From positions 4,072-68,071 of the forward strand of contig CAZAFL010000016.1 of the NCBI GenBank assembly GCA_964484465.1: DNA of 64,000 bases, in the 5' to 3' direction. Below the pieces are notes generated by a model that had not been told where the DNA came from, did not search any database, and saw only the letters and a list, made by a program, of their open reading frames with translations. This document shows, piece by piece, positions 6,700 to 28,388 of this stretch (positions within the stretch are counted from its first letter, which is position 1; each line of letters begins with the position of its first letter). The translations under genes were made by a program, and so were the position numbers. The DNA is from an uncultured Chlorobiaceae bacterium. Lineage in GTDB: Bacteria; Bacteroidota; Ignavibacteria; UBA10030; SZUA-254.

Positions 6700-7083
6700 C
6701 TATGATTTAAAATGGGGATTCTCAATTACTCCAAAGAGATTTCCAAAAGGATCTTTCACGACGCCGAGTTTTATTCCACCTCCAACATCCTCAACAGGCC
6801 TATAGGATTTTGCACCGAGTTTCAGCAGCCGTTTGAATGACTGTTCGGCATTTTTGACTCCCCAGTACGCGTCAACTCCACCGACATTCTTCGACCGTTT
6901 GTGATTATCGGGATGCAATCCAAATTCATATCCCCCCACGTTAAATCCCACATAATATTGCGGCATATCAAAATACGGCTTCAAACCGAGAACTTTGATA
7001 TACCATGCTTTCGCTTTTTTAACATTGCGGACGAAGTACACCACAGTGCGTAAGCCATGAAACGACTCTGTCTTCTTTTTCAT
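6700..7083 (-). CDS. VOC/glyoxalase-bleomycin-resistance family protein
   Basis: 127 aa. 'FHGLRTVVYFVRNVKKAKAWY...LG' glyoxalase-like beta-alpha-beta-beta-beta signature and a '...DPFGNLFGV' C-terminal motif. Confidence 0.65.
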   Translation of the reverse strand: MKKKTESFHGLRTVVYFVRNVKKAKAWYIKVLGLKPYFDMPQYYVGFNVGGYEFGLHPDNHKRSKNVGGVDAYWGVKNAEQSFKRLLKLGAKSYRPVEDVGGGIKLGVVKDPFGNLFGVIENPHFKS

Positions 7084-7120
7084 ACCATGAGTCCTTCACA
7101 TTGGTGAATGAGGAATTTGT

Positions 7121-7708
7121 TCAGTTGTTATTCGATAACTGACGGTAATCTTCGGGCGTATCAACATTTATCATAATCCCACCGTCCTGCACTTCAACTT
7201 CAGCGATTTCGTTCTCGTGCGAGCGGACTACAAATCGTGCGCCTACTTCCGGTGGAGCATTGAGCAAGTCATCAAATAGTCTTGAGGAGAACATTACGGG
7301 ATGACCTCTTTTTTTTTCAAATGTGGGAATAACAATCGGGTTGTTCCCTTCATTGAATTTCATTATTAACGTTTTGATTGTCACCGGCAATACGCCCGGA
7401 TGGTCAACGGGGTGTATAAGTACTCCTTCGGGAAGAGTTGACTGCATCGCCTCAATCCCTGTGATAATGGAAGAAAGCTGTCCATGTTCAAAATTTTTAT
7501 TGATGATGATATCGACATTGACATGTTCGAGGTGTTTTCCAACTTCTACGGAATGTGCGCCGGTGACAACAATAATCTTATCGAGGCCTGCACGCCGGTG
7601 CGTATTAATTATGTGACGGACAAACGTCGTATCACGTATTTTTAGCAGCGCTTTGGGCGATCCCATCCTTCCCGAAGCGCCTGCCGCAAGGATAATAGAA
7701 GTTATCAT
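7121..7708 (-). CDS. mocA: Molybdenum cofactor cytidylyltransferase (MocA/MobA-like NTP transferase)
   Basis: 'IILAAGASGRMGSPKALL' nucleotidyltransferase P-loop. About 195 aa. Lies inside the molybdenum hydroxylase cluster (ygfJ position in E. coli). Confidence 0.75.
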   Translation of the reverse strand: MITSIILAAGASGRMGSPKALLKIRDTTFVRHIINTHRRAGLDKIIVVTGAHSVEVGKHLEHVNVDIIINKNFEHGQLSSIITGIEAMQSTLPEGVLIHPVDHPGVLPVTIKTLIMKFNEGNNPIVIPTFEKKRGHPVMFSSRLFDDLLNAPPEVGARFVVRSHENEIAEVEVQDGGIMINVDTPEDYRQLSNNN

Positions 7709-7800
7709 GACTTGCCATCAAGTGAAATGCCTTGCGCGGAACAACATGCGCTCAGTTATTTCAAATTCCGTACTGGAAATGAACCAAACACATCAGCCGT

Positions 7801-8727
7801 TCAGTGTTCAAGAACCCATGATAACAATGCCATCCGGATGTAAATGCCGTTCTGCGTCTGGCGGAAATACGCAGCGCGGGGGTCGGTGTCGACTTCCGCA
7901 GCGATCTCGCCCGACCGCGGTAAGGGATGCATAACAATGGCATGCTGCGGGAGGTGGCGCATCGCACTCTCATCGAAATAATATTGCCGGATGGTTTGTG
8001 AATACTCAACGTCGCTCCCCTGAAATCGTTCCCGTTCGATACGGGTGACATAGACGACATCGATTTCAGGAAGAAATTTCTTCAGGTCGGATTCGCAGGT
8101 ATACCAGACATCGTGATCGTCCAGGTAATCGATCATATCTTCATTCATTTGAAGCGAAGGAGGGGCGACAAAATATATTTTTACCCGTTCGAATTTTCCG
8201 AGAAGGTACGAAAGGGAGCGAACCGTCCTGCCGTCGACAAGATTCCCCACCATGGCGATCTTCAAACCGTCGAGCTTATTGACACCCTTGTAAATCGTAT
8301 ACAGGTCGAGCAATGCCTGCGTCGGGTGTTGTCCCCCCTTTCCATCACCTGCATTGATGACAGGAGAGGAAGATACCGACGCCGCTCTCTTGGCTCCGCC
8401 GACTTCCATGTGCCTCAGCACAATAACGTCGGCATAATCATCGACGACGCGGATGGTATCTTCAAGCGTCTCACCAAGCGAAGCGGAAGAAAAATCCGCC
8501 GCATGTTCGGTTGACAGCACTTTTCCTCCCAGCCGGTGCATTGCCGATTCAAACGAAAATCTCGTCCTCGTCGAAGGTTCATAAAACAACGACGCCATAA
8601 TTTTGTTATCATAATCCTGCGTCCCGCCGCGCCGTACAATACGCTCCATTTCAGCAGCGCGGTCGAACAGTTCCATAATCATCGGAAGGGTAAACTGCTG
8701 GGATTCGAGTATGTGAGAAAGCTTCAT
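7801..8727 (-). CDS. Aspartate-carbamoyltransferase-like carbamoyltransferase (ATCase catalytic-chain family)
   Basis: STRTR carbamoyl-phosphate motif, HPTQ and HPLPR (the ATCase-type motif rather than OTCase HCLP). 308 aa. No pyrI is adjacent. Confidence 0.7.
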   Translation of the reverse strand: MKLSHILESQQFTLPMIMELFDRAAEMERIVRRGGTQDYDNKIMASLFYEPSTRTRFSFESAMHRLGGKVLSTEHAADFSSASLGETLEDTIRVVDDYADVIVLRHMEVGGAKRAASVSSSPVINAGDGKGGQHPTQALLDLYTIYKGVNKLDGLKIAMVGNLVDGRTVRSLSYLLGKFERVKIYFVAPPSLQMNEDMIDYLDDHDVWYTCESDLKKFLPEIDVVYVTRIERERFQGSDVEYSQTIRQYYFDESAMRHLPQHAIVMHPLPRSGEIAAEVDTDPRAAYFRQTQNGIYIRMALLSWVLEH

Positions 8728-8742
8728 TTCTGTACTCCGGAA

Positions 8743-9681
8743 TTAACGAACAATGTGAGTTCCTCCTGCCCCACATACAGCATCTACAAGATGTTCGGGA
8801 TTTGTGATAATCACTTCTTCACCGCCATGAGAGAGAAAATCTACCGATGCTTCTATTTTCGGACCCATACTTCCCGCCGGAAATTGCCCTTCCTGCAAAT
8901 AGCGAAGAGCTTCACTCACCTTCATACGATCCAAAGAAGTTTGATTCTGTTTTTTGTAGTTCATATAGACACGGTCAGTGTCGGTGGAGATGACAAATTT
9001 TTGCATGTGAAGAGCTTTTGCAAGCAGCGCCGATGCCCGGTCTTTATCGATTACCGCTTCGATACCGCGGTAATGACCATTTTCCTGTATAACGGGAATG
9101 CCTCCCCCGCCGACGGCAATGACAATCATTCCATGATGAAGACATTTATCTATTGCATCCAGTTCAACAATTTCATGCGGTACGGGCGATGGAACAACGC
9201 GACGGTATCCCCGCGCGGCGTCTTCGACGATTTGCCATCCCTGGTCCTGTTTCCGGCGTTCTGCTGTCTCTTTGGAATAGAAGGGGCCAACGGGTTTCGT
9301 GGGGTTTGCAAAGGCAGGGTCGTTTTTATCAACAACGACCTGAGTCAGAATGGTAATGACAGGATTTTTTTTTCCTTTTTCACGAAGAGCCGAACGCAAT
9401 GCATTCTGAAGAATGTATCCCATTTCGCCCTGGGTAGATGCATCGCAACTATCCAGTGGAAGCGGATAGACCTGAGCCGACGCCAGTTCCGAACGAATCA
9501 GTTGCGCTCCAACCTGAGGTCCGTTACCGTGTGTAATTACGACCTGAAATCCTCTTGAGATCAATTCGGCAATATATGAGCAGGTCACCGCGGCATTCTG
9601 CATTTGCTCAGCCACCGTTCCGCTTTGCCCTGCGCGGATGAGTGAGTTTCCGCCGATTGCGATGAGGATTGAAGAAATCAT
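8743..9681 (-). CDS. arcC: Carbamate kinase (ArcC/YqeA-like)
   Basis: 'IAIGGNSL' N-terminus, amino-acid-kinase fold motifs ('ITHGNGPQVG'), about 310 aa. Equivalent to yqeA in the E. coli ygf cluster. Confidence 0.85.
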   Translation of the reverse strand: MISSILIAIGGNSLIRAGQSGTVAEQMQNAAVTCSYIAELISRGFQVVITHGNGPQVGAQLIRSELASAQVYPLPLDSCDASTQGEMGYILQNALRSALREKGKKNPVITILTQVVVDKNDPAFANPTKPVGPFYSKETAERRKQDQGWQIVEDAARGYRRVVPSPVPHEIVELDAIDKCLHHGMIVIAVGGGGIPVIQENGHYRGIEAVIDKDRASALLAKALHMQKFVISTDTDRVYMNYKKQNQTSLDRMKVSEALRYLQEGQFPAGSMGPKIEASVDFLSHGGEEVIITNPEHLVDAVCGAGGTHIVR

Positions 9682-10820
9682 GAGTGAAGAGTTTCTACGT
9701 GAAGGTCAGCTATGAGATCACTCATCACATCCGATTTATTCCGAAGAGGCATGCGTTCCCCCCGTCGCACACGGATAAGCTGTGCGACGATACTGATACC
9801 AATTTCTTCCGGAGTGACAGCTCCGATTTCGATGCCCATCGGAGCATGTACACGCAGTAACGCATTGGGAGACACACCACGCTCTGCCAGATGTTTATAC
9901 GTCGTTAAAATTTTTCGCTTACTGCCAATCATACCGATATACCTGGCAGGAGTCTTGAGGGCATACTCAAGAATTTCTTCATCATATTTATGCCCTCGTG
10001 TAACAATAACAATATATGTCGATTGCTTGATATCCAATATGCCAAACGCATCGGTAAAATCAACCGCAAGCGTTTGTACGGCTTCGGGAAACCGCTGGGG
10101 GTTAGCGTATTTTTCACGGTCGTCAACAATGCTCACCTGAAACCCGGCAAGGGCAGCTGCACGGGAGACAAATTTCGAGACATGCCCTCCACCAAAAATG
10201 ATCAAACCCGGGCTACCGGAAATCGGTTCAAGCAATAATTCACCTCGGGCAATTTTTACACGCTGAGTTTCATGACGATGATAAACTTTTTGAAGAGCAT
10301 CCAGTACATCCGGCGTCGGATGTGAGGCAAGAGATTGAAGTCCTTGAATATCGATGATGAACGCAGCATCAGAACCTGATTCTTTCTTATCGGGAGACCG
10401 GACGAGAAATTTTCCTCTGACCTGCCCGTTAGTATTGAGAAGCGTCGCTAGTATCGAATCTTCTCCCTCTGATCGCCTCGATGTTAACTCCTTGAACAGT
10501 GGAACCATTTCGCCCGTCAACGGTTCAATGAGCACATCCAGACTCCCACCGCACATCAAGCCATGCTCGATGTCGTCTTCATTGAGATGAAACGTAAGGA
10601 TCTCCGCCCTGTTCAGCTCATGGAGACGACGCGCATGCAAGAGCACATCTCCTTCCATGCAACCGCCCCCAACTGTACCTAATGAAACAATCCCGTCATG
10701 TTTAATGAGCATCTTAGACAACGCGGAAGCAGGTGTCGAGCCCGTCGTTGAGATGATTGTCGCGAGCATAACACGTTCTTCTGTTTCGAGGGCGAGGAGT
10801 ATTTCCCTGAAGATCTCCAT
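9678..10820 (-). CDS. XdhC/CoxI-family molybdenum-hydroxylase maturation factor (yqeB-like position)
   Basis: XdhC_CoxI N-terminal domain ('LATIISTTGSTPASALSKMLI...GTVGGGCMEG') plus an XdhC_C Rossmann segment ('LIIFGGGHVSKFVSRAAALAGFQVSIVDDR'). ATGA overlap with arcC. Confidence 0.8.
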   Translation of the reverse strand: MEIFREILLALETEERVMLATIISTTGSTPASALSKMLIKHDGIVSLGTVGGGCMEGDVLLHARRLHELNRAEILTFHLNEDDIEHGLMCGGSLDVLIEPLTGEMVPLFKELTSRRSEGEDSILATLLNTNGQVRGKFLVRSPDKKESGSDAAFIIDIQGLQSLASHPTPDVLDALQKVYHRHETQRVKIARGELLLEPISGSPGLIIFGGGHVSKFVSRAAALAGFQVSIVDDREKYANPQRFPEAVQTLAVDFTDAFGILDIKQSTYIVIVTRGHKYDEEILEYALKTPARYIGMIGSKRKILTTYKHLAERGVSPNALLRVHAPMGIEIGAVTPEEIGISIVAQLIRVRRGERMPLRNKSDVMSDLIADLHVETLHS

Positions 10821-10879
10821 AGTGATTCACTTGAGATAATTGAAATTCTAAATCAATTATCTCAATAGTTTTAAGTCAA

Positions 10880-11878
10880 TTACATCGTTAATGCCATCAC
10901 GGATTTACACGTATGCAACCGATTTTCTGCTTCGGGAAAGACGCGCGACTGTTTTCCATCAATGACCGCATCCACGACTTCGTACCCGCGGTCGGCCGGC
11001 AAGCAGTGCATGTATATTGCATTCTTGTGAGCCAGTTTCATTTTTTCTTCATCACAAATCCAATATCTGTATTTTTTCGATATCTCAAGAGCTTCCTGCG
11101 GGCGATGGAAAAGTGATTCGATTCCCCACGATTTGGGGTAAACGATATCAGCATCCTTAAATGCGTCATCCATATTATCCACGACATCAAATTTGGTCCC
11201 GTTCTCTTTCGCGGCTTTCTTTGCGTAGTCCATTTCACTTTTCATCAGGGTATATTCCGGAGGATGAGCAAGGACAACATCAAGACCGAACCGAGGCATC
11301 AATGTAATGAGCCCCTGCGGAACCGACATCGGTTTTGCGTAACTCGGCGCATATGCCCAGGAAACTGCAATTTTTAATCCCCGAAGATTTTTCCCAAATT
11401 CTTCCCGAATCGTCATCAAATCGGCGAGCGTTTGAAACGGATGGTCAATGTCACACTGCATATTTAATACCGGGACATTTGCGTGTTCCGCAACTTCGCG
11501 CATATACTTGTTGCCTTCCCCCGGGACAAGGTCATGGCGGATTGCAATCGCATGGCCGTAACTTGAGAGAATAATACCCATATCTTTCGGCGATTCACCG
11601 TGGGCAACCTGTGAAGTTTCCGCCGCGATGAAGTGAGCATGCGCGCCAAGCTGTGTCGCGCCTGCCTCGAACGAATTCCGTGTTCGTGTTGATTTGTCAA
11701 AGAAAAAAAGAAATACCGTCTTGTCGGGCAAATACCTGTGCGCGGACCCTTTCTTGAATAACTTCTTCAAATCGCCCGCAGTTTTGAGTGCCAAGTCGAT
11801 TTCTTTCACCGACCAGTTTTTCGTTTCGATGTAGTCTTTTCCCCGAACGACATTCGGGAGCTTCTGCAATTTCGCCAT
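10880..11878 (-). CDS. YgeW-like (knotted) carbamoyltransferase of the ornithine/putrescine carbamoyltransferase superfamily
   Basis: STRTR motif, 'HCLPA' C-terminal motif, 332 aa. Sits beside carbamate kinase as ygeW does beside yqeA in E. coli. Confidence 0.75.
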   Translation of the reverse strand: MAKLQKLPNVVRGKDYIETKNWSVKEIDLALKTAGDLKKLFKKGSAHRYLPDKTVFLFFFDKSTRTRNSFEAGATQLGAHAHFIAAETSQVAHGESPKDMGIILSSYGHAIAIRHDLVPGEGNKYMREVAEHANVPVLNMQCDIDHPFQTLADLMTIREEFGKNLRGLKIAVSWAYAPSYAKPMSVPQGLITLMPRFGLDVVLAHPPEYTLMKSEMDYAKKAAKENGTKFDVVDNMDDAFKDADIVYPKSWGIESLFHRPQEALEISKKYRYWICDEEKMKLAHKNAIYMHCLPADRGYEVVDAVIDGKQSRVFPEAENRLHTCKSVMALTM

Positions 11879-11913
11879 TACGATCCTTTATGAATAAGAA
11901 TGATTAGTTGAGA

Positions 11914-12366
11914 TTATGTTCCAATATCTTCATTCCATAGAGTAGGGTGAGCGTCGATAAAATCTTTCATTAATTTAACGCATTCGTCCATATCGAGATT
12001 GACAACTTCAACGCCATGTTCACGCATAAATGCTTCTGCGCCCCTAAACGTCCGGCATTCACCCACAATCACCTTAGGGATGTTAAACTGCACGACAGCG
12101 CCGGCACACAGATAACAAGGCATCAACGTCGAGTAGAGAAGTGTCTCTTTGTAGCTGCCGATTCTTCCGGCGTTTATCAGGCAATCAATCTCCGCGTGCT
12201 TCATTGGGTTTGATTCCTGCACACGACGATTGTATCCACGACCGATAATGGTTCCTTTCCGCACCAGAACGGATCCGATCGGAATTCCTCCCTCTGACAA
12301 CCCCTTGTTTGCTTCCGCAATGGCAGCTTGCATGAACGTGTCCATTCGCTGCGTATCAATGGTCAA
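11914..12366 (-). CDS. CDA-fold zinc deaminase (Fcy1/GuaD-type cytosine/guanine deaminase)
   Basis: 'HAE' and 'PCYLCAGA' zinc ligands. The C-terminus 'FIDAHPTLWNEDIG' closely resembles yeast cytosine deaminase and Bacillus GuaD. Guanine deaminase is most likely given the purine context. Confidence 0.7.
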   Translation of the reverse strand: MTIDTQRMDTFMQAAIAEANKGLSEGGIPIGSVLVRKGTIIGRGYNRRVQESNPMKHAEIDCLINAGRIGSYKETLLYSTLMPCYLCAGAVVQFNIPKVIVGECRTFRGAEAFMREHGVEVVNLDMDECVKLMKDFIDAHPTLWNEDIGT

Positions 12367-12378: not shown

Positions 12379-13575
12379 CTATTTGTTGTTGAGATACGTC
12401 TTCGGAAAAGCTGCGTACCACGCGCTTGCTTTCACGAGATGATCGACAGGGATTTGCTCTGTCGCCATGTGCGCGTAGACTTCGTTGCCAGGGCCGAATC
12501 CGATACAGGGAATATTATGCATCCCCATCACCGCGACGCCATTCGTGCTGAAAACCCACCGGCTTAGCTGCGGTCGTTGTCCGAATAATCCTTCATACGT
12601 CTTGACGCCTGTATGAAGGACTGGATGATTTTCAGGCAATAACCATGTGGGGTAATATTTTTTCGTCGGATAGGTTAACCCTTTCCAGCTCGGAACGGCA
12701 TAATCGAGAACAACAACTTCTCCTTCCGCTTTTTTTACGCTGGAAAGTTCTTGAATTTCATGTACTGCCGATTCTAAAGTGTCCGTTGCAGCCAGCCTGC
12801 GGTCGAGATGGATTGTCGATGAATCCGCCACTGCGCAGAGTGAAGGAGATGTCGACCGGATTTCCGCAATCGTCACCGTCCCCTTTCCCAGGAACGGCTC
12901 GCCAGTCAAACGTTCATTCAACCGTTCAATATCTTGAACGATGGGCGCCATTTTGTAGACTGCATTCACACCGCGTTCTGGCGCCGAACCATGGCATGAA
13001 ACTCCTCGTGTTCTCACTTCTATTTCCATTCTACCCCGATGTCCGCGGTATACAGCCAGGTTTGTCGGCTCGGTAATCACGACTACTTCCGGCCTGATCT
13101 TATCTTCGTTTATAATGTATTGCCAGCACAGTCCGTCACAATCTTCTTCCTGGACACTGCCGACAATATACAGTGTGTAGTCATCCTCCAATCCGAGCTC
13201 CTTTATGATTTTGCCGCCGTACACAATCGAAGCAAGAGCGCCTTTCATGTCGCATGCGCCGCGGCCGTAGATGATCCCGTCCTTCTGTGCACCCTTGAAC
13301 GGATCGATCGTCCAGTTTGCAGGGTTGCCGACATCAACAGTGTCGACATGCGCATCCATTGCGATGATATGCTTTCCTGTTCCGATGCGGCCGAGAATAT
13401 TTCCCATGGGGTCAATTTTGACCTCATCAAATTTGCATTTTTCCATTTCATCTTTGATCCGATGAATGACCTGCTCCTCCTGAGAGCTCATCGATTTTAT
13501 TGCGATAATGTCACGAAGGAACTGCGAAACCTGCTTTTCGTTGTTCTGTGCTGTCTTGAGAATCTGATCGAACAT
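12379..13575 (-). CDS. M20-family metallopeptidase/amidohydrolase (YgeY-like)
   Basis: 'DAHVDTVDVG', 'GRGACDMKG' (M20 active-site Asp and general-base region). 398 aa. Matches the ygeY position in E. coli. Confidence 0.75.
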   Translation of the reverse strand: MFDQILKTAQNNEKQVSQFLRDIIAIKSMSSQEEQVIHRIKDEMEKCKFDEVKIDPMGNILGRIGTGKHIIAMDAHVDTVDVGNPANWTIDPFKGAQKDGIIYGRGACDMKGALASIVYGGKIIKELGLEDDYTLYIVGSVQEEDCDGLCWQYIINEDKIRPEVVVITEPTNLAVYRGHRGRMEIEVRTRGVSCHGSAPERGVNAVYKMAPIVQDIERLNERLTGEPFLGKGTVTIAEIRSTSPSLCAVADSSTIHLDRRLAATDTLESAVHEIQELSSVKKAEGEVVVLDYAVPSWKGLTYPTKKYYPTWLLPENHPVLHTGVKTYEGLFGQRPQLSRWVFSTNGVAVMGMHNIPCIGFGPGNEVYAHMATEQIPVDHLVKASAWYAAFPKTYLNNK

Positions 13576-19730: not shown

Positions 19731-21689
19731 TCAAAATTCAATTGCGTCGATGTTTACAAAATGAACCCGGTTCGAATTGAGCATCCCTTTCATTAGCGTA
19801 GCCATCGCGTGGTAATACGCCATATCCACCTTCACGCTTGAACCATTGTCCCGTGCTCTTGCCCCGAGAATTCTCGACATATTCCAGTCGATTGTCACCA
19901 CGGCGTCAATCGTTGCAAACGTGGCTGACGTTCTCTGCTCATCGAGCGACAATTCATATTCTTTATCCCTGAAGCGTCCCTGGAGCGCGACATTCTTTTT
20001 ATTTCCCGTAAATACAAAACCGCTCAACGAATTCCATTTTTTAAACATCTCGGTAGAACCAAAAAATCTCGGCTTCTCGATATACGGCCCGCCGTCTTCA
20101 GGACAAAAAACATCACAGTTGCCACATTCATTACATGCATCCGCGAACGTAGCGATTTGGTGAATTTCCCTGATCTTGAATAGTCCGCCTTCAACTTCGC
20201 GCCACGTATTTTCTTTAATTTCGACATTTTTATATTGAATTTCAACAGGTTCAACCTCAAAATAGAAGTTTGCATCATTCGGGCAAACCGGGATGCATTT
20301 GTCACAATTAATGCAATCCCATAAATGTAAATGACTTCCAATTTTTTTCGGGATTTTTTGATTACTTTCGAAATGATAACGATGATGTTCGACAGTTTTC
20401 TTCAATACTTCGGCAGTGTTTTGCATTACTACCGAGTTAACGTCATTGGATGCGGCGCTTGATTTCAGATAGTTATGTTGAAATTCTTTTATTGTCACAG
20501 CGCCAGCCGCTTTCATCTTTTGTTCGAGGTTCACGAGATACTGTGGAAGCCTGCCGTAGCCGCCTGGCCGCAAAAGATCTGTGCAAGTAGTAACCGGAAC
20601 AAGCCCCACCGCTACACAATCCGCAAAGTTGTTTGCATCGACCCCAGCAGAAAATGAAATGGGAAAATCTGCTCCGAACGCTTTTCTCCATTCATCAACG
20701 AGCGCAAGATGCAGAACATGCAAAGGTTGACCGGAAAGATACTGAATTTTATCTTTAAGAAATTTCCCCTTATTAATAACTTCAAGAGTATTGCCAAATT
20801 TTACGCCGACCGTTTTTCCCGCCTTTGCGGCAACAGATTGTAACCTTCGGACAACCCCGACTGCATCCTGGAACATGATGTTCACCTTGTAGATGTTTTC
20901 ATTCACCTCAATGTCCCGGTATCCAAGTTTTTCATGAAGAAGAAATTCGACACGCTCCCTTCCCAGCATCGGAGGATTCATCTTTATAATGACATGAAAA
21001 TCCATTTCGGAGAGAAGAAACTCGCAAATCCTTTCAATCTCGTTTGCCGGCGTGCCGTGGAATGTGGAGAGGGTGATGCTGTTCCCAATTTCCGACTTGA
21101 AATTATTGTTACGATAAGATGAAAACTCTGAAGGGATTTGTTTTCGGTATTCCTCTATCAATCCTGAAGCGTTCTTCATAGCGCTCAGCCACTGACGAAT
21201 TTGCGAACTCTGAATCCCCGCAAGGTCATAACCGACACTTATGTCAAAGATCGTGTCAAGGTTGTTGTGTTCAGCGAACAACCATCCCTTAAGAATTTCG
21301 ATGACCACGCTTGCCTTGACATATTCTTTCAGCGATTCATCGAGAAGAAGTTCCTGCGACCATTCGGTATTGTAGCCGATGGTCGCCATATCGATACATG
21401 GCCTTGTCAGTTTTAACCTGTCGTTAATCTGGACGGTTTTCAGTTCGAGGATTCGAGAACCGGCCAACCAGGAAAGGACGATATTCTGCGTAAGTTGTGT
21501 CTGAGGTCCGGCAGCGGGACCGACTGGATTCGCGGCGGAGTTTCCGCAAAATGTCACCGACATATCCACTACGTTGCTCGGTCGATAAAATTTTCTTGAC
21601 GGAAGGTCGAAAATCGAGTTGTTCTTCTTGTACTCATAATAAATACGCCTGAGAAGATTGGGGAAGGATATTGGAACAAGCTCAGCCAT
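19731..21689 (-). CDS. Dihydropyrimidine-dehydrogenase PreA-like / YgfK-N-terminal-like Fe-S flavoprotein (TIM barrel plus 2x[4Fe-4S])
   Basis: DHOD/DPD-like barrel segment ('SFSAGVDANNFADCVAVGLVPVTTCTDLL') followed by 'CINCDKCIPVCP' and 'CNECGNCDVFCP'. 652 aa. Lacks the GltD-like C-terminal half of YgfK. Confidence 0.5.
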   Translation of the reverse strand: MAELVPISFPNLLRRIYYEYKKNNSIFDLPSRKFYRPSNVVDMSVTFCGNSAANPVGPAAGPQTQLTQNIVLSWLAGSRILELKTVQINDRLKLTRPCIDMATIGYNTEWSQELLLDESLKEYVKASVVIEILKGWLFAEHNNLDTIFDISVGYDLAGIQSSQIRQWLSAMKNASGLIEEYRKQIPSEFSSYRNNNFKSEIGNSITLSTFHGTPANEIERICEFLLSEMDFHVIIKMNPPMLGRERVEFLLHEKLGYRDIEVNENIYKVNIMFQDAVGVVRRLQSVAAKAGKTVGVKFGNTLEVINKGKFLKDKIQYLSGQPLHVLHLALVDEWRKAFGADFPISFSAGVDANNFADCVAVGLVPVTTCTDLLRPGGYGRLPQYLVNLEQKMKAAGAVTIKEFQHNYLKSSAASNDVNSVVMQNTAEVLKKTVEHHRYHFESNQKIPKKIGSHLHLWDCINCDKCIPVCPNDANFYFEVEPVEIQYKNVEIKENTWREVEGGLFKIREIHQIATFADACNECGNCDVFCPEDGGPYIEKPRFFGSTEMFKKWNSLSGFVFTGNKKNVALQGRFRDKEYELSLDEQRTSATFATIDAVVTIDWNMSRILGARARDNGSSVKVDMAYYHAMATLMKGMLNSNRVHFVNIDAIEF

Positions 21690-21779: not shown

Positions 21780-23111
21780 TTACACTTTTCTCATCCTCTC
21801 CCACAACCTCGTTGCCACTTTTCCCGCTTTCTCATTAACCTTTGCCACATCGAGACCAACGACTTCCCTGTTTTTCACTACCCACTTCCCGTGAACCATC
21901 ACCGACTCAACCATGGAGGAATTCATTCCAAACAAAACATGTCCGGAAAGATTTTGTTTTGTGATTGGCGTTGGAGGAGCATAATTCACTACGATAAGGT
22001 CGGCAACAGAATTTTTCGCCAATGTTCCAAATTGTTTCCCAAAAATTTCCGAAACCAGCCGCTGGCCGCCGTTAAGGACTTGTGTGATATCAACGTTTTC
22101 AGAAAACCCTGAATCGCGTCGCTTGAAGTAACCGAATTTCGCCTCTTCAATCATGTCCGCAGGAAATCCATCCGTGCCGAGCGCGGCCCTTTCACCGAAA
22201 AGATGAAGTGGTGCATACCCTACACGGTTGTTCATGTTTGAACGGGGATTATGAACCATCCAGCATTTCCCTTCATACACAGGTATAAAATTCTTTTTCG
22301 AAAGATGGACACAATGCGCGAGAATAGACTGCTTGCGTAATATGCCGTGTTCCCCGAGGCGTTGTGTGACGCTACACTGGTAATTTTCCTCAACGTCAAT
22401 GATATCGCACTTATCTTCAGCAACATGGATATGAACGCCGGTGTTATACTTTGATGCAAGTTGCCCGCAGAGGCGCAATGAATCATTACTCAACGTGAAG
22501 GAGGCATGCACACCAACCAATCCGCGAAAGTGAGAGCTTTTTTTATTCGCGCGGATAAATCGTTCATTTTCTCGCAAACCCCGATCCCGTTCCTTCATTC
22601 CTCCACGGTCGGTCACTTCATAACAGAGCACTCCGCGCAATCCAACTTCGTTTATGGCTTGTTTGATAATATCCAGCGACCCTTTGATGGCTCGAGGAGA
22701 CGAGTGATGGTCGACAAGTGTAGTCGTACCATATGTTACAGCATCAATTGCTCCCATGAGCGCACTGTAATAAATGGCCTCATCATCGAGCGCGCGGTCG
22801 AGTCTCCACCATATCTTCTGAAGAATTTCCAGAAAATTTTGCGGCTGTTCTTCCGGCATCGGCATTCCGCGTGAAAGGCTTGAATACAAATGTGTGTGTG
22901 CGCAGACAAATCCGGGCATTATTAACTTGCCCTTCAAATCATAAACCTCCTCATTGCGTTTTTGAACAAGGTTTTTTTTCCGATCGCCGATCTTGCCGTC
23001 GTCTACACGGATGTCCGCCGATTCAATAGATAGAGGAGAAAGGGTCAGGATTGAAGCGTTCCGCAGTAACAGGCTCAAGAAATTACACTCCCGCGAGCGA
23101 AGGCACGGCAA
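21780..23111 (-). CDS. ssnA: SsnA-like amidohydrolase (chlorohydrolase/aminohydrolase family)
   Basis: 'PGFVCAHTHLYSS' metal-binding HxH, 'HVAED', 'HCVHL', and 'GTDG' aspartate motif. About 440 aa. The ORF-track start is a TTG that overlaps the upstream gene; the true start is probably internal. Confidence 0.7.
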   Translation of the reverse strand: MPCLRSRECNFLSLLLRNASILTLSPLSIESADIRVDDGKIGDRKKNLVQKRNEEVYDLKGKLIMPGFVCAHTHLYSSLSRGMPMPEEQPQNFLEILQKIWWRLDRALDDEAIYYSALMGAIDAVTYGTTTLVDHHSSPRAIKGSLDIIKQAINEVGLRGVLCYEVTDRGGMKERDRGLRENERFIRANKKSSHFRGLVGVHASFTLSNDSLRLCGQLASKYNTGVHIHVAEDKCDIIDVEENYQCSVTQRLGEHGILRKQSILAHCVHLSKKNFIPVYEGKCWMVHNPRSNMNNRVGYAPLHLFGERAALGTDGFPADMIEEAKFGYFKRRDSGFSENVDITQVLNGGQRLVSEIFGKQFGTLAKNSVADLIVVNYAPPTPITKQNLSGHVLFGMNSSMVESVMVHGKWVVKNREVVGLDVAKVNEKAGKVATRLWERMRKV

Positions 23112-24339
23112 GAGTTTCCACCAGCGCCTCGAGGTTCGGTTCGATATTGAACGCGCTGCCGGCAGCTTCTTTAGCCGATTGAATATCTTTTAATCCATTA
23201 CCGGTAATAACAACAAGTACGGATTCATTCGACTTGATAATATTTTGTGTGACGGCCCGGCGCAATCCGGCGACGCCGGCAATCCCCGCAGGCTCTCCAA
23301 ACACACCGCCGAGCCTCGCGGTGATACGCATTGCATCGAGTATCTCGCCATCGGAGACTGCAAGCATTTCTCCATGAGATAATCTCACCTGATGCATTGC
23401 GCGACGCCAGTTGCGCGGGGTGCCGACCGCAATACTGTCCGCAATCGTATTTGTCTCAGATGAAACCAAATCTTTTCCGGAGTTGAACGCATCGACCATC
23501 GGTCGTGCACCCTCAGCCTGGACCCCAAGCAATCGGGGAACACAGTCGATGAACCCAAGCCGCTTCATCTCCTGCAGCCCTTTGCCAATGCCTCCGATTG
23601 TGCAACCGTCTCCTACCGAAACAACAACCCAATCCGGAAGGTTGTTTGCACACTGCTCGGCAATTTCCAGCCCTGCAGTTTTCTTTCCTTCAACAAGAAA
23701 TGGGTTGGTACCGCTGTTACGGTTATACCATCCGAATCGCTCACATGCCTGACGGCATAGGTCAAAGGCGTTTTCGTATGTTCCTTGTACCCTCAATACC
23801 GTCGCTCCGAAGATAAGGAGTTGCGTTACTTTCGGCTCAGGCGCTCTCGCCGGTACAAAGATATAACTCTTGAGCCCGGTTGCGGCAGACAATCCCGCAA
23901 GTGACGACGCGGCATTTCCGGTTGATGCACAAGCCACAATGTTGAACCCAAACTCCATCGCCTTTAAAACACCAACAGAACTCGCTCGATCTTTAAACGA
24001 ATTTGTTGGATTGCGGCTGTCGTCTTTCAGGAAAAGTTTTCGAACACCGACAATGCGAGCAAGCCGGGGCACATCGTACACCGGGGTCCATCCAACCTGT
24101 AGATGTGGTGCATGGAGGTCGGGAGAAATTGGGATAAGTTCCCTGTAACGCCAATGATCGTAGGGACGGTGTGAAATCTCATTCTTAAGATGCAGAGCCA
24201 GCCCGTCATAATCATATTGAACATCCAGAATACCTTCCAGACCGCATTTCGGGCAGGTAAAAACATTTCCGTATTCATACGATGTACCGCACACAACACA
24301 CTTCAGTCCGGTAACATATTTTGGTGGAGAGAATTTCAT
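23083..24339 (-). CDS. Threonine-synthase-like PLP enzyme with an N-terminal C4 zinc ribbon
   Basis: 'CVVCGTSYEYGNVFTCPKCG' ribbon, 'NPTNSFKDRASS' PLP-lysine motif, 418 aa. Confidence 0.6.
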   Translation of the reverse strand: MKFSPPKYVTGLKCVVCGTSYEYGNVFTCPKCGLEGILDVQYDYDGLALHLKNEISHRPYDHWRYRELIPISPDLHAPHLQVGWTPVYDVPRLARIVGVRKLFLKDDSRNPTNSFKDRASSVGVLKAMEFGFNIVACASTGNAASSLAGLSAATGLKSYIFVPARAPEPKVTQLLIFGATVLRVQGTYENAFDLCRQACERFGWYNRNSGTNPFLVEGKKTAGLEIAEQCANNLPDWVVVSVGDGCTIGGIGKGLQEMKRLGFIDCVPRLLGVQAEGARPMVDAFNSGKDLVSSETNTIADSIAVGTPRNWRRAMHQVRLSHGEMLAVSDGEILDAMRITARLGGVFGEPAGIAGVAGLRRAVTQNIIKSNESVLVVITGNGLKDIQSAKEAAGSAFNIEPNLEALVETLAVPSLAGV

Positions 24340-24353
24340 ATCAGGAATTGAAT

Positions 24354-26705
24354 TTATTGACCGACAAGTTCTGGCACTTTTTTCTGTGCGATGCTCTTTT
24401 TGAGGGCTTCAATCGACAATAGAATCACTTCATTTGTCGCGGGCAATGAGAACTCCGGTTCAAACTCATAATTACCGACCGCAGAGATCGCGTCCTTAAT
24501 TGCTAGCCAGCATGAAAGTGCAAGCATGAACGGCGGTTCGGCAACGGCTTTACTCTGGCGAATAGTGTTGGGGTTCGGTACACCCTGAAGTAACTCGGTT
24601 CGAAAATCTTTTGGGATATCCTGCACAGACGGAATCTTGTACGTATCCGGTGAATGCGTCAGCAAATTTCCTTTGTCATCCCATTTAATCTCTTCGGTCG
24701 TACACCATCCAACTCCCTGGATATATCCTCCTTCAACCTGCCCGATATCGATGCGCGGATTAAGTGAATCGCCGACATCGTGGAGAATATCAGTTCTTAA
24801 AATTGTATGGCGGCCTGTCAGGACATCGAGCAACACTTCTGTAACCGCCATACCGAACGCAAAATAGTGGAACGGTTTGCCGAAACCTTTCTCTTTATCC
24901 CATCCAACATCGGGTGTTTTGTAAAAACCGGTTGCGCTAAGCTGAATCTGATGGAGGTGTAGCAACGGAATTGCATCGGCAAATGCGATTTTCCTTTCCG
25001 GATGTATTGAATCAAATATAACATCATCCTTAAAGACTATGGATGTCCCGACCGATGGAGGATTGGAATATTTTTCGGTAAAGATTTTGGCAACCCCTTC
25101 CCCCATTCTTGATTTCAGAATATCGACCGCATTCTTCACCGCCATACCGTTCAGGTCGGCGCCCGCGGATGCTGCAGTCGCGGATGTATTCGGAACTTTC
25201 GAAGTGTTTGTTGCATTCACTTTCACCCGATTAAGGTTCACGCCGAATTCCGCGGCAGCCACCTGTTGCATTTTTGTGTGCAGCCCCTGCCCCATTTCCG
25301 TCCCTCCGTGATTGACAAGGATCGTTCCATCCTTGTACACCAGAACCAGTGCTCCTGCCTGATTGAGAAAGGAGGTCGTGAAGGAAATGCCGAATTTCAC
25401 AGGCGTTAACGCAAGACCTTTTTTGTAGAATTCATTCGTCGAATTGAATTCGTCAATTTCCTTTCTTCGGTCGGAATAACCGGATGTCTTCATGAGCTGG
25501 TTATACATCATGAAGAGCCTGTTATTCTCGACCTCTTCGCCATAATGTGTGATGTTATTCGATTCCTGACCGTAAAAATTCAAACGGCGAATATCGGTGG
25601 CGTCTTTTCCGCTGGTTGCTGACAAACATCGCGCGACCCTATCGATCACCTGTTCGATGACAGCCATCCCTTGCGGACCGCCAAATCCTCTGAACGCGGT
25701 ATTCGACGGAAGGTTTGTCTTATACACTTTTCCAACAACCCTTAGGTTCGGAATAAAATATGCGTTATCAATATGAAGCATTGCCCGCTGCAATATCGCG
25801 AAGGAAAGATCCGTAGCGCACCCTCCATCACTGTTCAATTCCACGTCAAGCGCCAGAAGCTTTCCTTCATCATCAAATCCTGCCTGATATTTTGAAAGGA
25901 AGCGATGACGTTTTCCTGTCATGATCTGGTCGTCGTCGCGGAACAGTCGGATTTTCACGGGACGTTTTGTCGCCCGGGTGAGTAATGCGGTCCAGCACGC
26001 AGTGTGATTTGCCTGCGTCTCCTTCCCTCCGAATGCTCCGCCCATTCGTCTCACTTCAACGACAACCTCATGTTTACCGATACCGAGAAGTTCTGCAATC
26101 AGCGCCTGCGTTTCCGACGGGTGCTGCGTTGAGCTGTAGACGTTCATCTCTTTCCCTTCACCGGGTATGCAAAGACAAACGTGAGTTTCGAGGTACCAGT
26201 GTTCCTGCGCACCGGTCCGCAATTCGCCGCTGATGACATGAGGTGATGATTTCAACGCCTCTTCCACGGTTCCCCGTTCGATTTTCGCCGGCGGACCTAA
26301 TAGAGTGTTTTTTTCGATAGCTCTTTCGAGTGTGAGAACCGGGTCGAGTAACTGGAACTCAATTTTAATGCGTTTTTCTGCCTCCAGGCATTGCTCCTCA
26401 GTTTCAGCAGCGATCAAAAACATTGCCTGACCGATACATATCACTTCATTTTCGGCGAGACACAATTCATCTTTGACAACGGGACCCATCTGATTGTGTC
26501 CGGGGATATCTTTATAACACAACACGGCATGAACGCCGGGGACCTTTTTAGCTTCACTCAAATCGAAAGAAGTAATCTTCGCGTGCGCGTGCGGGCTGTA
26601 AACAACTTTTCCAGTAAGGAGCTGCTCATTGACGAGTATATCGTCGACATACACAGCTCTGCCTGAAACATGCAAGCGGGCAGATTCGTGAGATATGTTA
26701 TTCAT
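24354..26705 (-). CDS. xdhB: Xanthine dehydrogenase molybdopterin-binding subunit (XdhB-type)
   Basis: 783 aa. a/b hammerhead plus MoCo-binding domains ('GGAFGGKE', 'GFGGPQG', 'EPPF'). Collinear with Rhodobacter-type XdhB. Confidence 0.85.
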   Translation of the reverse strand: MNNISHESARLHVSGRAVYVDDILVNEQLLTGKVVYSPHAHAKITSFDLSEAKKVPGVHAVLCYKDIPGHNQMGPVVKDELCLAENEVICIGQAMFLIAAETEEQCLEAEKRIKIEFQLLDPVLTLERAIEKNTLLGPPAKIERGTVEEALKSSPHVISGELRTGAQEHWYLETHVCLCIPGEGKEMNVYSSTQHPSETQALIAELLGIGKHEVVVEVRRMGGAFGGKETQANHTACWTALLTRATKRPVKIRLFRDDDQIMTGKRHRFLSKYQAGFDDEGKLLALDVELNSDGGCATDLSFAILQRAMLHIDNAYFIPNLRVVGKVYKTNLPSNTAFRGFGGPQGMAVIEQVIDRVARCLSATSGKDATDIRRLNFYGQESNNITHYGEEVENNRLFMMYNQLMKTSGYSDRRKEIDEFNSTNEFYKKGLALTPVKFGISFTTSFLNQAGALVLVYKDGTILVNHGGTEMGQGLHTKMQQVAAAEFGVNLNRVKVNATNTSKVPNTSATAASAGADLNGMAVKNAVDILKSRMGEGVAKIFTEKYSNPPSVGTSIVFKDDVIFDSIHPERKIAFADAIPLLHLHQIQLSATGFYKTPDVGWDKEKGFGKPFHYFAFGMAVTEVLLDVLTGRHTILRTDILHDVGDSLNPRIDIGQVEGGYIQGVGWCTTEEIKWDDKGNLLTHSPDTYKIPSVQDIPKDFRTELLQGVPNPNTIRQSKAVAEPPFMLALSCWLAIKDAISAVGNYEFEPEFSLPATNEVILLSIEALKKSIAQKKVPELVGQ

Positions 26706-26785
26706 GATAATTTCATTTAACTAATTCTTATCTAAAATTCCAAACAATCGAAATTGTATGTACTTTTTTTTGACCTCCCCTTAAC

Positions 26786-26807
26786 CCCCTCCTTAAAAAA
26801 AGAGGGG
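26786..26807 (-). promoter_or_regulatory. GC-rich hairpin (CCCCTC / GAGGGG) inside a 246-bp xdhA-xdhB intercistronic gap; a TGCAAA-N4-TTTGCA palindrome lies at 26913-26928
   Basis: Read directly from the sequence. An unusually long gap for an operon interior. Confidence 0.3.
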
Positions 26808-26951
26808 AAATGTGTGGCAATGGTTTCTTCTTTGATTTTTAAGATACTCTAAATCATAACAATTCAGTTTATATTCCAGTCGTGTTCTTTTGCTCGCCTT
26901 CCCTAGGAGTCTTGCAAATAGTTTTGCATCTTTTCGATGTTGTGTTGTTCC

Positions 26952-28388
26952 TTATTTCGTCGTCTCCGACCAAAACTTCATCAGTAAATTTTTTGCCGCG
27001 ACTTTTCGCATCTCCGCTCCTGCACGGGCATCAGAAATCGGTGTGAAATCACTATCAATCAACGGCATTGCTTCCTCGATAACCGATCGTTCCCACATCT
27101 TGCCAATCAAAAACTGCTCTGCTGATGAAGCACGCCTCGTTCGCTCAGCCATCCCTCCATACGCGAGCATAATGTCTTTTACTGCTGAACCACCATTCAA
27201 CTCTAACCTGAACCCGGCAGAGACGGTAGAGATATCCAGGTCTTTTCGTTTCGAAACTTTATACGATTTTACTTTCACACCATTTACCAGTTTTGGAATA
27301 ATAACGGCAACGATGAGCTCGTCAGGACTTCTCACCGTCTTTCGGTAACCGACCACATAATCATTTAACGGAACCTCTCTTGAACCATTGCTGTTTTGAA
27401 GGACAACCTTCGCATTGTATGCCATCAACACCGGCAAGGTATCGCCGATTGGTGAGGCAGTTCCGAGATTACCTCCCAATGTTGCAAGGTTTCGGATTTG
27501 TTGGGAACCGAAAACCATCAACATATCATGCAACGCGGGAAAATGAGATCGAGCCTTTAGCATGATTTCGGATAAGGAGGCTCCTGCACCAATTTTCACC
27601 GACCCACTGTCTTCAGAAATTTTCTTGAGGTCGTCAACACCCGAAAGGTCAATGATATGTTCAAGAATTTCATGTTTCTTTGTCACCTTCAACGCTATAT
27701 CTGTCGCACCACAAATAATTACGGCATCAGGATTTTTTTGTAGAAGCGCCAGAGCTTCTTTTGCGCTTTCCGGTCGAACGTACTGCTGTGTATGAGTCTG
27801 CAAGTGTTTCGATTCTCCTGGAATCGATTTGAGAAGTTCAATTATTCTACCCTCATCCTTCGAAAACGAATCTACCGACTGATGAGTGCAGGACGTTGCC
27901 GCCGCCTCGACGATCGGGCGATAGCCAGTACAACGGCACAAATTTCCCGTAAGGGCATCATCGATCTGATCTCGGGAAGGGTGATGGGAATTCTTGTAGA
28001 GAGAAAACAGGGACATGATAAATCCCGGCGTGCAGTACCCGCATTGACTCCCGTCAGTTTCCACCATTGCTTCCTGTACCGGATGAAGTGCAGTTTCACC
28101 GGAAGCTAAATTCTCCACTGTTATCAGCTGCTTACCTTGAAGCATCGGAAGAAATACGAGGCAGGAATCCATACTTTTGTAATGAAGCTTCGAGTCAGGA
28201 CCGAGTTCACCCAATACAACCGTACAGGCTCCGCAATCTCCTTCCGCACAACCTTCCTTCACTCCTTTATGCGTCGGCAAACTGCGAAGGTAGTTTAACA
28301 CTGTTGTCGTCGGGGAAACAGCGCCGGAACGGCTGAAATCAATCGTCCTGATTTCACCATCCAATATAAATGAAATCCCTGATTGCAT
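26952..28388 (-). CDS. xdhA: Xanthine dehydrogenase [2Fe-2S]/FAD-binding subunit (XdhA-type)
   Basis: 'CAEGDCGACTV', 'CGYCTPG', 'CRCTGYRPI' 2Fe-2S motifs, then a CO-dehydrogenase flavoprotein FAD domain ('IICGATDIALKV'). 478 aa. Confidence 0.85.
   Translation of the reverse strand: MQSGISFILDGEIRTIDFSRSGAVSPTTTVLNYLRSLPTHKGVKEGCAEGDCGACTVVLGELGPDSKLHYKSMDSCLVFLPMLQGKQLITVENLASGETALHPVQEAMVETDGSQCGYCTPGFIMSLFSLYKNSHHPSRDQIDDALTGNLCRCTGYRPIVEAAATSCTHQSVDSFSKDEGRIIELLKSIPGESKHLQTHTQQYVRPESAKEALALLQKNPDAVIICGATDIALKVTKKHEILEHIIDLSGVDDLKKISEDSGSVKIGAGASLSEIMLKARSHFPALHDMLMVFGSQQIRNLATLGGNLGTASPIGDTLPVLMAYNAKVVLQNSNGSREVPLNDYVVGYRKTVRSPDELIVAVIIPKLVNGVKVKSYKVSKRKDLDISTVSAGFRLELNGGSAVKDIMLAYGGMAERTRRASSAEQFLIGKMWERSVIEEAMPLIDSDFTPISDARAGAEMRKVAAKNLLMKFWSETTK

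Follow-up and report, generated by a model that had tools for sequence, protein, structure and literature searches.

An operon of an Ignavibacteriales-like bacterium that probably encodes an environmental variant of the reductive uric-acid pathway

We analyzed a stretch of 64,000 nt (hereafter the window) of contig CAZAFL010000016.1, which stems from an uncultured Chlorobiaceae bacterium. From position 28388 to 6700 the window contains an array of 17 open reading frames (ORFs), all located on the minus strand. The array forms a single operon, and the bacterium is Ignavibacteriales-like. The operon probably encodes an anaerobic purine catabolism, namely an environmental variant of the reductive uric-acid pathway via 2,8-dioxopurine, coupled to the formation of ATP. 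In a preliminary description of this DNA the array had been announced as comprising 21 genes, but the ORF map and even the gene list of that description add up to 17. The operon is backed by tight gaps between the genes, by a candidate promoter at one end and by a terminator-like site at the other (Table 1). Intergenic distances ranged from -29 to +92 nt, the sole exception being a spacer of 246 nt between xdhA and xdhB. A chance arrangement can be dismissed because the identical gene order recurs in loci of metagenome-assembled genomes (MAGs) and metagenomes, the proteins of which are 55-92% identical. Two of these loci (L018 and L035) exhibited the order XdhA-XdhB-ThrCl-SsnA-YgfKN-XdhD-CysKl-PduS-BMCT-YgeY-CDA-YgeWl (l, -like; YgfKN, short YgfK form; BMCT, tandem-BMC shell protein; CDA, deaminase of the cytidine deaminase fold).

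Protein families were assigned by means of the curated NCBIfam cut-offs and of Pfam, and scores are given in bits against the cut-off. Nearly all gene names proposed in the preliminary description were confirmed by these scans. XdhA, XdhB, SsnA, the TIGR03311 hydroxylase, YgeY, carbamate kinase and the PyrB-like protein scored above the cut-off of their families, while for the YgfK-like, YgeW-like, MocA, XdhC and PduT-like proteins the proposed family was the best match, yet with a score below the cut-off. The DNA had also been attributed to a genome of the Fibrobacterota-Chlorobiota-Bacteroidota (FCB) type possessing a type IX secretion system (T9SS). This attribution holds because five proteins of the window contain T9SS sorting domains and because its closest relatives are MAGs labelled Ignavibacteriales, 'Chlorobi' or 'Bacteroidota'.

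The chemistry of the reductive uric-acid pathway was not solved until 2025, in studies of gut Firmicutes and Escherichia coli (bioRxiv 10.1101/2025.04.24.650524, 10.1101/2025.05.19.654654). Urate is converted to 2,8-dioxopurine by XdhD/XdhAC, YgfK reduces the ring, and YgeX cleaves 2,3-diaminopropionate to pyruvate (bioRxiv 10.1101/2025.05.19.654654, 10.1101/2025.04.24.650524). By analogy, this scheme would give a function to each window protein having a homologue in E. coli or Clostridium sporogenes, which speaks for the proposed pathway. The homology of the array to the ygeW-xdhD neighborhood of E. coli had been recognized before and is borne out by the identities of YgeY (56%), carbamate kinase to YqeA (44%), SsnA (38% over the full length), YgeW (38%) and YgfK (34%). 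The earlier pathway account stands as far as the purine array is concerned, but it covered neither the lack of hyuA and ygeX nor the chemistry published in 2025. With the E. coli cluster ygeW-ygeX-ygeY-hyuA-yqeA...ygfK-ssnA-ygfM-xdhD (bioRxiv 10.1101/2025.05.19.654654) the window shares homologues of YgeW, YgeY, YqeA, MocA and SsnA, the FMN and Fe-S parts of YgfK, a fused Fe-S/Mo hydroxylase, a separate xanthine dehydrogenase nearby and the coupling of carbamoyl phosphate to ATP formation. In contrast to E. coli, it is devoid of HyuA, YgeX, YgfM, YqeB, YqeC, transporters and a YgeV-type regulator, contains additional ThrC-, CysK- and PyrB-like enzymes as well as PduS/PduT, and has a xanthine dehydrogenase of the two-subunit Rhodobacter type.

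For comparison, genomes were scanned with the PduS-like protein and metagenomes with the XdhD-like protein, which together with look-ups of exact proteins gave 96 related loci; these were mapped by tblastn or by called genes. Loci were regarded as close relatives when their XdhD proteins were 77-85% identical to that of the window and as distant ones at 52-57%; nine close loci were well flanked (6 kb or more on each side). The core of the operon was present in approximately 30 close metagenome and MAG relatives (Ignavibacteriales), PduS/PduT only in about half of them. Variant A, the form of the window, reads ...YgfKN-XdhD-CysKl-PduS-BMCT-YgeY-(CDA)-short YgeW-like-XdhC, whereas variant B has the order ThrCl-SsnA-YgfKN-XdhD-true YgeW-CysKl-YgeY-CK-PyrBl-MocA-XdhA-XdhB (CK, carbamate kinase) without PduS/PduT. 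YgfKN, XdhD, CysKl and YgeY were encoded by all nine well-flanked close loci, SsnA by eight, ThrCl by seven and PduS/BMCT by four, while YgeX, YqeB, YqeC and NtrC were found in none of the nine. Distant loci keep XdhD-SsnA, usually along with CysK-like, PyrB-like, YgeW-like and carbamate kinase genes, and an XdhD-like gene adjoining ygfK and/or ssnA was conserved across the related loci. Some relatives (L002, L012, L095-L098) possess three-subunit Mo enzymes and reductases resembling dihydropyrimidine dehydrogenase (DPD) with NAD(P)H parts of their own.

Enzymes of the proposed pathway

As stated in the preliminary description, the array encodes two different Mo hydroxylases, XdhAB and a fused enzyme without an FAD domain. 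XdhA revealed the Pfam domains Fer2, Fer2_2, FAD_binding_5 and CO_deh_flav_C. The best match of XdhB in the PDB was chain B of the Rhodobacter capsulatus xanthine dehydrogenase (XDH; E 2.8e-206), whose residues Glu232, Arg310 and Glu730 are all kept. On the basis of its family and of these catalytic residues, XdhAB would oxidize hypoxanthine and xanthine to urate in the first step, similar to the Clostridium clusters, in which a separate XDH feeds urate; unlike those gut clusters, that of the window belongs to an environmental member of the Ignavibacteriota. The Fcy1-type deaminase may feed an aminopurine into this step, perhaps by a reaction of the guanine type, though its substrate is uncertain. 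Its best PDB match was yeast cytosine deaminase (E 3e-34), guanine deaminase of Bacillus subtilis reaching 2e-11, and the gene is kept in L001, L018, L023 and L035. XdhC and MocA would mature the Mo cofactors.

The FAD-less enzyme is a candidate 2,8-dioxopurine dehydrogenase (DOPDH, urate 6-dehydroxylase), which would strip the 6-oxo group from urate to yield 2,8-dioxopurine. We assign this second step to it because of its family membership, its purine-type active site and the conserved adjacency to ygfK and ssnA. The enzyme carries the triad Glu416/Arg492/Glu835, matching true XDHs, whereas the first two positions are occupied by Gln and then Ala or Asn in E. coli XdhA and XdhD (Gln/Asn in XdhD). 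Its score for the aldehyde oxidoreductase (AOR) family was far below the cut-off (452 vs 1100). As the Mo subunits of both hydroxylases possess purine-type triads and the FAD-less enzyme passed TIGR03311 but failed the AOR family, a grouping with CO dehydrogenases or AORs, which the preliminary description had considered, does not apply. Among solved structures, the closest are the Se-containing nicotinate dehydrogenase and the AOR of Desulfovibrio gigas, whose domains are arranged in the same way. The former designation 'xdhD-like' is overstated, since the identity to E. coli XdhD is 25% (BLASTP) and the protein belongs to TIGR03311, not to TIGR03313. Residue E606, a hallmark of E. coli XdhD, was discarded as a diagnostic position, as it resides in an E. 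coli-specific insertion that cannot be aligned. Judged by its description, the C. sporogenes DOPDH/XdhAC is like the window enzyme an FAD-less Fe-S and Mo protein of approximately 850-870 aa; it does not use NAD(P)H, and its physiological donor is unknown (bioRxiv 10.1101/2025.04.24.650524).

Reduction of the ring with the help of an external low-potential donor, the third step, would be performed by a DOPOR-like protein of 652 aa termed mini-YgfK. It matches only positions 4-413 of the 1012 positions of TIGR03315, and the similarity to E. coli YgfK extends over residues 7-464 and 905-999 (BLASTP), while residues 465-904, the FAD/NADPH module, are missing. The absence of this module accounts for the score below the cut-off. 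The protein contains two CxxCxxCxxxC motifs (CINCDKCIPVC and CNECGNCDVFC), and an AlphaFold (AF2) model based on 30 homologues (mean predicted local distance difference test score, pLDDT, 78) gave pig DPD and dihydroorotate dehydrogenases (DHODHs) as best matches. Homology to E. coli YgfK and the modeled DPD/DHODH-like fold suggest a ring reductase of the YgfK/DOPOR type. Metagenomes frequently contain this short form (>120 clusters, 56-73% identity). Since mini-YgfK lacks the FAD/NADPH module, it presumably needs an external low-potential donor, and as the FAD-less hydroxylase is likewise devoid of NAD(P)H parts, both reductive steps should depend on such a donor. The Clostridioides difficile reductase UacX also has no NAD(P)H module of its own, implying an external low-potential donor; it differs from the window protein in being PydA-like rather than a truncated YgfK, and the pyridoxal phosphate (PLP)-dependent lyases of the two clusters differ as well.

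In the fourth step, SsnA would, by analogy, open the pyrimidine ring of the reduced 2,8-dioxopurine. A hydantoinase of the HyuA type, required for the fifth step, would have to come from another part of the genome. hyuA was detected in five of 80 related metagenome loci and in one of the nine well-flanked close loci. In the close relative L031 the cluster ends with hyuA, which demonstrates hydantoinase use in the clade; therefore, the source genome probably encodes the enzyme at another site.

The sixth step would comprise the phosphorolysis of ureido groups to carbamoyl phosphate by the YgeW-like and PyrB-like proteins and hydrolysis by YgeY, and carbamate kinase would convert carbamoyl phosphate into ATP. 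The YgeW-like enzyme (332 aa) is 38-40% identical to E. coli YgeW, and YgeW-specific insertions are missing in the alignment; though below the cut-off, it is closest to YgeW, so that a YgeW-type carbamoyltransferase occurs together with a carbamate kinase. Substrate-level ATP formation by such a combination, already suggested in the preliminary description, has been demonstrated experimentally elsewhere for YgeW and YqeA (bioRxiv 10.1101/2025.04.24.650524). The PyrB-like protein is a different case, since it passes TIGR00670 but does not retain the residues of an aspartate carbamoyltransferase. Arg229 and Gln231 (E. coli numbering) bind aspartate in aspartate transcarbamoylase (ATCase). The window protein and five of five close orthologues have Glu in place of Gln231, and three of these orthologues have Gly or Gln in place of Arg229. 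The sequences thus suggest that the enzyme is probably not an ATCase. Because its gene is linked to that of carbamate kinase (L002, L015, L020, L033, L079), we propose that it is a second ureido-group phosphorolase, a role based on context and few residues.

In the last step, a CysK-like PLP enzyme, possibly assisted by a ThrC-like racemase, would convert diaminopropionate to pyruvate and ammonia. We infer from its context that the CysK-like enzyme replaces YgeX (diaminopropionate/albizziin beta-lyase), because all contexts inspected for its gene were purine clusters and YgeX never turned up there. It was present in nine of nine close and 11 of 17 distant well-flanked loci, being the commonest accessory gene, and three further look-ups of homologues (five loci) all led to purine clusters; a look-up with the exact sequence of the window protein retrieved no matching contig. 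Homologues of the same length (483 aa) and 75-85% identity form more than 120 clusters. None of the 80 metagenome loci searched with E. coli YgeX gave a match. Within the window, E. coli YgeX showed only weak similarity, to the CysK-like and the ThrC-like enzyme (22% for the latter). The CysK-like protein is 76% identical to its counterpart in the Verrucomicrobiia MAG L012 (10001-11461), whereas the neighboring purine proteins share only 32-39%; this contrast points to an unusually strong constraint on that gene or to its recent transfer. The ThrC-like enzyme gave threonine synthases as best PDB matches (residues 63-410). Its gene adjoins ssnA in seven of the nine well-flanked close relatives, and the enzyme of L012 (37% identity) retains the zinc ribbon. 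One may speculate that it acts as a racemase or as an auxiliary or second lyase.

Table 1. Genes and putative signals of the operon, given from the terminator-like to the promoter end (scores in bits, family cut-off in brackets)
Feature	Position	Strand	Matches and remarks
Terminator-like hairpin + T-run, just after VOC stop codon	6669..6685	-	weak; window hairpin count not above shuffles
VOC (vicinal oxygen chelate)/glyoxalase-fold protein, last gene of the array	6700..7083	-	weak Pfam Glyoxalase match only
MocA-like molybdenum cofactor cytidylyltransferase	7121..7708	-	NTP_transf_3 122; TIGR03310 158 (186)
PyrB-like carbamoyltransferase	7801..8727	-	TIGR00670 315 (237)
Carbamate kinase (YqeA/ArcC type)	8743..9681	-	TIGR00746 374 (358)
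XdhC-family Mo-cofactor maturation/insertion factor	9678..10820	-	XdhC_CoxI + XdhC_C; NF045664 309 (350)
Short YgeW-like carbamoyltransferase	10880..11878	-	YgeW 256 (453), 240 (500); OTC (ornithine carbamoyltransferase) 236 (281)
Fcy1-type CDA-fold deaminase	11914..12366	-	dCMP_cyt_deam_1 77
ygeY, M20 ureido-group hydrolase	12379..13575	-	NF009555 593 (321); TIGR03526 587 (321)
PduT-like tandem-BMC shell protein (BMC-T)	13612..14169	-	two BMC domains 159; family 118 (250)
PduS/RnfC-like flavo-Fe-S protein (MNdh type)	14202..15524	-	Complex1_51K 153, SLBB, Fer4_17, RnfC_N
CysK-like PLP enzyme	15549..17000	-	ORF reaching 17030; PALP 64; weak CysK/SbnA matches
Fused 2x[2Fe-2S] + Mo hydroxylase without FAD domain	17103..19727	-	TIGR03311 972 (830)
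mini-YgfK (DOPOR-like), FMN barrel + two [4Fe-4S] motifs	19731..21689	-	TIGR03315 422 (835)
ssnA, amidohydrolase	21780..23111	-	NF005540 476 (444); TIGR03314 463 (455.5)
ThrC-like fold-type-II PLP enzyme, N-terminal CxxC...CxxC zinc ribbon	23083..24339	-	PALP 250
xdhB, xanthine dehydrogenase Mo-binding subunit	24354..26705	-	TIGR02965 1007 (849)
xdhA, xanthine dehydrogenase small subunit (2x[2Fe-2S] + FAD)	26952..28388	-	TIGR02963 567 (467)
Candidate Bacteroidetes-type sigma-A promoter TTTG-N20-TAGATTTG	28436..28467	-	47 nt upstream of xdhA ATG; consensus match only

The PduS/PduT-like pair

The operon also encodes a PduS-like protein (440 aa) and a shell protein with two bacterial microcompartment (BMC) domains (BMC-T, 185 aa), the genes of which are 32 nt apart. 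The PduS-like protein is composed of an NADH/FMN domain, an SLBB domain, Fe-S motifs and a barrel-sandwich domain. NCBIfam matches were rnfC and PrdC, the score for the RnfC/PduS type being marginal (246.1 vs 245.95), and RnfC was the best match in the PDB. BMC-T matched best the PduT homologues 3nwg, 3pac and 3n79, and its single cysteine (Cys41) aligned with the [4Fe-4S] ligand of PduT ('TICSGKY' vs 'PVCPGKY'). In 16 loci the PduS-like gene always adjoined the BMC-T gene. By this adjacency, by the Complex1_51K, SLBB and Fe-S domains and by the conserved pore Cys, the pair corresponds to MNdh/BMC-T(SE), the NADH-dehydrogenase/electron-conduit module of aldehyde-dehydrogenase metabolosomes, which is often situated in satellite loci (PMC11275729). 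In contrast to the known module loci, it has no BMC-H, BMC-P or aldehyde dehydrogenase gene beside it and lies within a purine operon; none of the other window ORFs scanned showed a BMC, EutN or Aldedh domain, and the region is not a metabolosome locus. The pair may best be regarded as a mobile NADH-linked Fe-S redox module.

The explanation of its presence that we favor, though at slightly less than even chances, is that a satellite fragment of a dispersed FRAG-type microcompartment has by chance become lodged within the purine operon in a single sub-clade. Its job would then be the recycling of NAD+ across a shell encoded elsewhere and not purine chemistry. FRAG microcompartments, whose shell genes are spread across as many as six loci, have been reported in Ignavibacteriae (PMC8217296), and MNdh/BMC-T shows little tie to the type of pathway (PMC11275729). 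Moreover, the module shifts its genomic context among close relatives, and related operons readily take in inserted genes. Against this explanation speak the lack of BMC-H, BMC-P and aldehyde dehydrogenase genes in the window and in all fetched loci, and the fact that the pair is stably held at one position of the operon over a protein divergence of roughly 75-85%.

It is rather doubtful, by comparison, that PduS/PduT serves as a dedicated electron input, by which electrons would pass from NADH via PduS and a [4Fe-4S] PduT trimer to the FAD-less hydroxylase and mini-YgfK. The pair would in this case replace the YgfM subunit and the FAD/NADPH module of YgfK present in E. coli. Both reductive enzymes indeed lack a flavin or NAD(P)H module, and the FAD-less C. 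sporogenes enzyme must be served by a donor other than NAD(P)H. The pair is co-oriented inside the operon with gaps of 24-36 nt, its position CysKl-PduS-BMCT-YgeY is kept in at least 10 loci (73-86% identity), the Fe-S ligand Cys of PduT is conserved, and the RnfC-like PrdC (TIGR04481 match) has been named as electron-transfer partner of a soluble reductase. On the other hand, 11 close variant B loci encode the same FAD-less enzymes without any PduS/PduT in the cluster, and L002 retains the pair though FAD/NAD(P)H parts are built into both its Mo enzyme and its PreT/PreA-type reductase. Both observations weaken the case for PduS/PduT as a strict compensation for missing FAD modules. In addition, six other genomes (L003, L004, L007-L010) contain the same pair in unrelated contexts, and in the tree these copies nest among the purine-embedded ones. 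Because of the unrelated contexts, this nesting and variant B, a satellite origin is somewhat likelier than a role as donor; the stable position beside two reductases without a donor keeps the donor hypothesis in play.

More tentative still is a comprehensive model, in which PduS/PduT was recruited as the missing donor for the FAD-less urate reductase and the truncated YgfK, or connects NADH that is oxidized within a dispersed FRAG microcompartment with urate reduction in the cytosol, which serves as electron sink. In this model YgeX would also be substituted by a CysK-like lyase acting with a ThrC-like partner, and an ATCase-like enzyme with the Gln231Glu exchange would catalyze a second ATP-yielding ureido phosphorolysis.

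PduS/BMC-T genes without shell genes were also observed beside 3-hydroxyacyl-CoA dehydrogenase and acetate kinase genes (L003, 8981-13600) and beside Zn-alcohol dehydrogenase and asparaginase II genes (L009, 7957-13379, labelled Blastocatellia). The xanthine (Xau) microcompartment of Firmicutes likewise combines BMC-family genes with purine-catabolic genes, but it has a full shell locus, a predicted route from xanthine to formiminoglycine with other enzymes and no PduS/PduT (PMC6620236), whereas the window contains one BMC-T gene and dioxopurine-type enzymes. The MNdh/BMC-T module co-occurs almost exclusively with aldehyde dehydrogenase and is absent from Xau (PMC11275729). Xau was ruled out as a model because of its different pathway and the lack of PduS/PduT.

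Weighing of the pathway, selenium and regulation

Several findings weigh against the proposed pathway. E. coli HyuA had no tblastn match within the window, ygeX is absent, purine or urate transporters of the xanQ/uacT/ghxQ type were not found by homology search, and neither yqeB nor yqeC nor selD is present in the 64 kb; therefore, the pathway as encoded there is incomplete. The identity of the FAD-less hydroxylase to XdhD is low, and PduS/PduT is no more than a candidate electron donor for the two reductive steps. The functions suggested for Ignavibacteria are drawn from homology rather than from expression or biochemistry, those of the CysK-, ThrC- and PyrB-like enzymes from context and few residues.

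It is improbable, however, that the TIGR03311 enzyme is a second, possibly Se-dependent, oxidative hydroxylase of xanthine or other purines and that the cluster does not encode the 2,8-dioxopurine pathway. The curated name of TIGR03311 is 'selenium-dependent xanthine dehydrogenase', the active-site triad is that of true XDHs, and C. sporogenes owns both a Se-dependent XDH and DOPDH. But a complete conventional XdhAB is already encoded by the same operon, and the enzyme is flanked by homologues of ygfK and ssnA, for which the sole substrate chain known begins with 2,8-dioxopurine. The XdhD-SsnA adjacency occurred in 32 of 51 distant loci, and the DOPDH described for C. sporogenes has the same fused FAD-less Fe-S and Mo layout (Mo domain 307-839).

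A dependence on selenium, assumed in the preliminary description, found no local support. YqeB (TIGR03309) is missing in the window, where E. coli YqeB matched only via generic XdhC domains, and E. coli YqeC gave no match; both were absent from all 80 related loci. No SelD-type domain was detected among the window ORFs scanned, selD was not seen in the related loci compared, and a tRNA scan of the window revealed no tRNA-Sec or any other tRNA. In contrast, every Firmicute cluster carries the selenium markers YqeB, YqeC and SelD. We know of no sequence signature for a labile Se ligand on the Mo center.

The operon had also been termed sigma-54-linked and had been assigned to a two-component pair at 1-2849 as an analogue of YgeV. 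The pair itself exists, consisting of an NtrC-type activator (GAFTGA motif; cut off by the window start) and a histidine kinase, but its link to the operon did not withstand closer inspection, the activator lying approximately 5.7 kb and five genes away. A search of the window for the sigma-54 -24/-12 consensus yielded 25 matches (28.7 expected), none of them upstream of xdhA. The sole match with one mismatch, TGGCACTGCCATTTCA (31924-31939, minus strand), lacks the -12 GC and is located approximately 270 nt upstream of a BNR/sortilin-like gene. The region upstream of xdhA instead contains a match to the Bacteroidetes-type promoter consensus, which comprises -33 and -7 elements and occurs twice in 64 kb (0.59 expected). 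Although the GAFTGA AAA+ domain of the activator is 54% identical to that of YgeV and activator and cluster share the same strand, control of the operon by this pair is highly improbable in view of the five unrelated intervening genes, the chance-level number of -24/-12 matches and their absence in front of xdhA, the sigma-A-type consensus found there, the lack of NtrC/histidine kinase homologues beside all nine well-flanked close loci, and a second sigma-54 pair of the window (48077-51314), approximately 45 kb off, which matches YgeV just as generically. This second pair adjoins cupredoxin-domain proteins (44397-47790, 52549-53250), some of which are T9SS-tailed.

The spacer between xdhA and xdhB (26706-26951) holds a CCCCTC...GAGGGG hairpin. 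L018 and L035 also contain a spacer at this site (338 nt), the sequence of which differs, and the comparison with L018 and L024 did not disclose any conserved sequence; therefore, neither a conserved RNA nor a peptide is proposed for this gap. An Rfam scan of the whole window identified no purine, xanthine or other riboswitch. The VOC protein had no counterpart in any related locus compared and is probably not part of the pathway.

Outside the operon, the window contains a family-2 glycosyltransferase gene followed by an ORF of 1322 aa (34546-39828) and a gene for an Mrr-type restriction endonuclease (55274-56182), both on the minus strand. The window operon is free of small inserts between pathway genes, which split the related operons L005 (1544-2104, 6059-7144, 8898-9989), L095 (3480-4398, 8845-9990, 14067-14420, 15905-16159) and L097 (1267-3259, 9514-9903, 13136-13540). 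The insert types were toxin-antitoxin, AbiEii, PD-(D/E)XK/YhcG, 23S rRNA intervening-sequence protein, PIN and HepT/NTase.

Novelty and significance of the cluster

The pathway class is known and this type of cluster is abundant in metagenomes; new are the exchanged enzymes and the embedded PduS/PduT. The published distribution of the pathway comprises Bacillota, Pseudomonadota, Chloroflexota, Actinomycetota, Spirochaetota and Elusimicrobiota. The available part of the supplements to the preprint of Liu et al. holds no entries from Ignavibacteria, Bacteroidota or Verrucomicrobia, and by literature search we found no report of the cluster in Ignavibacteria.

Clusters of this kind bear some risk of misannotation. 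The PyrB-like enzyme clears the PyrB cut-off, any neighboring PF00291 protein tends to be labelled YgeX, and the family names include the term 'selenium-dependent', which is not backed by marker genes here.

The window and its metagenome relatives represent a distinct and widespread environmental version of the cluster in Ignavibacteriota; Verrucomicrobia and other groups harbor related versions. The locus offers candidates for the donor of the FAD-less hydroxylase and the reductase, for a substitute of YgeX and for the harvest of ATP from both ureido groups. If the role of PduS/PduT as electron donor were true, an Fe-S protein of a BMC shell would feed a soluble catabolic pathway.

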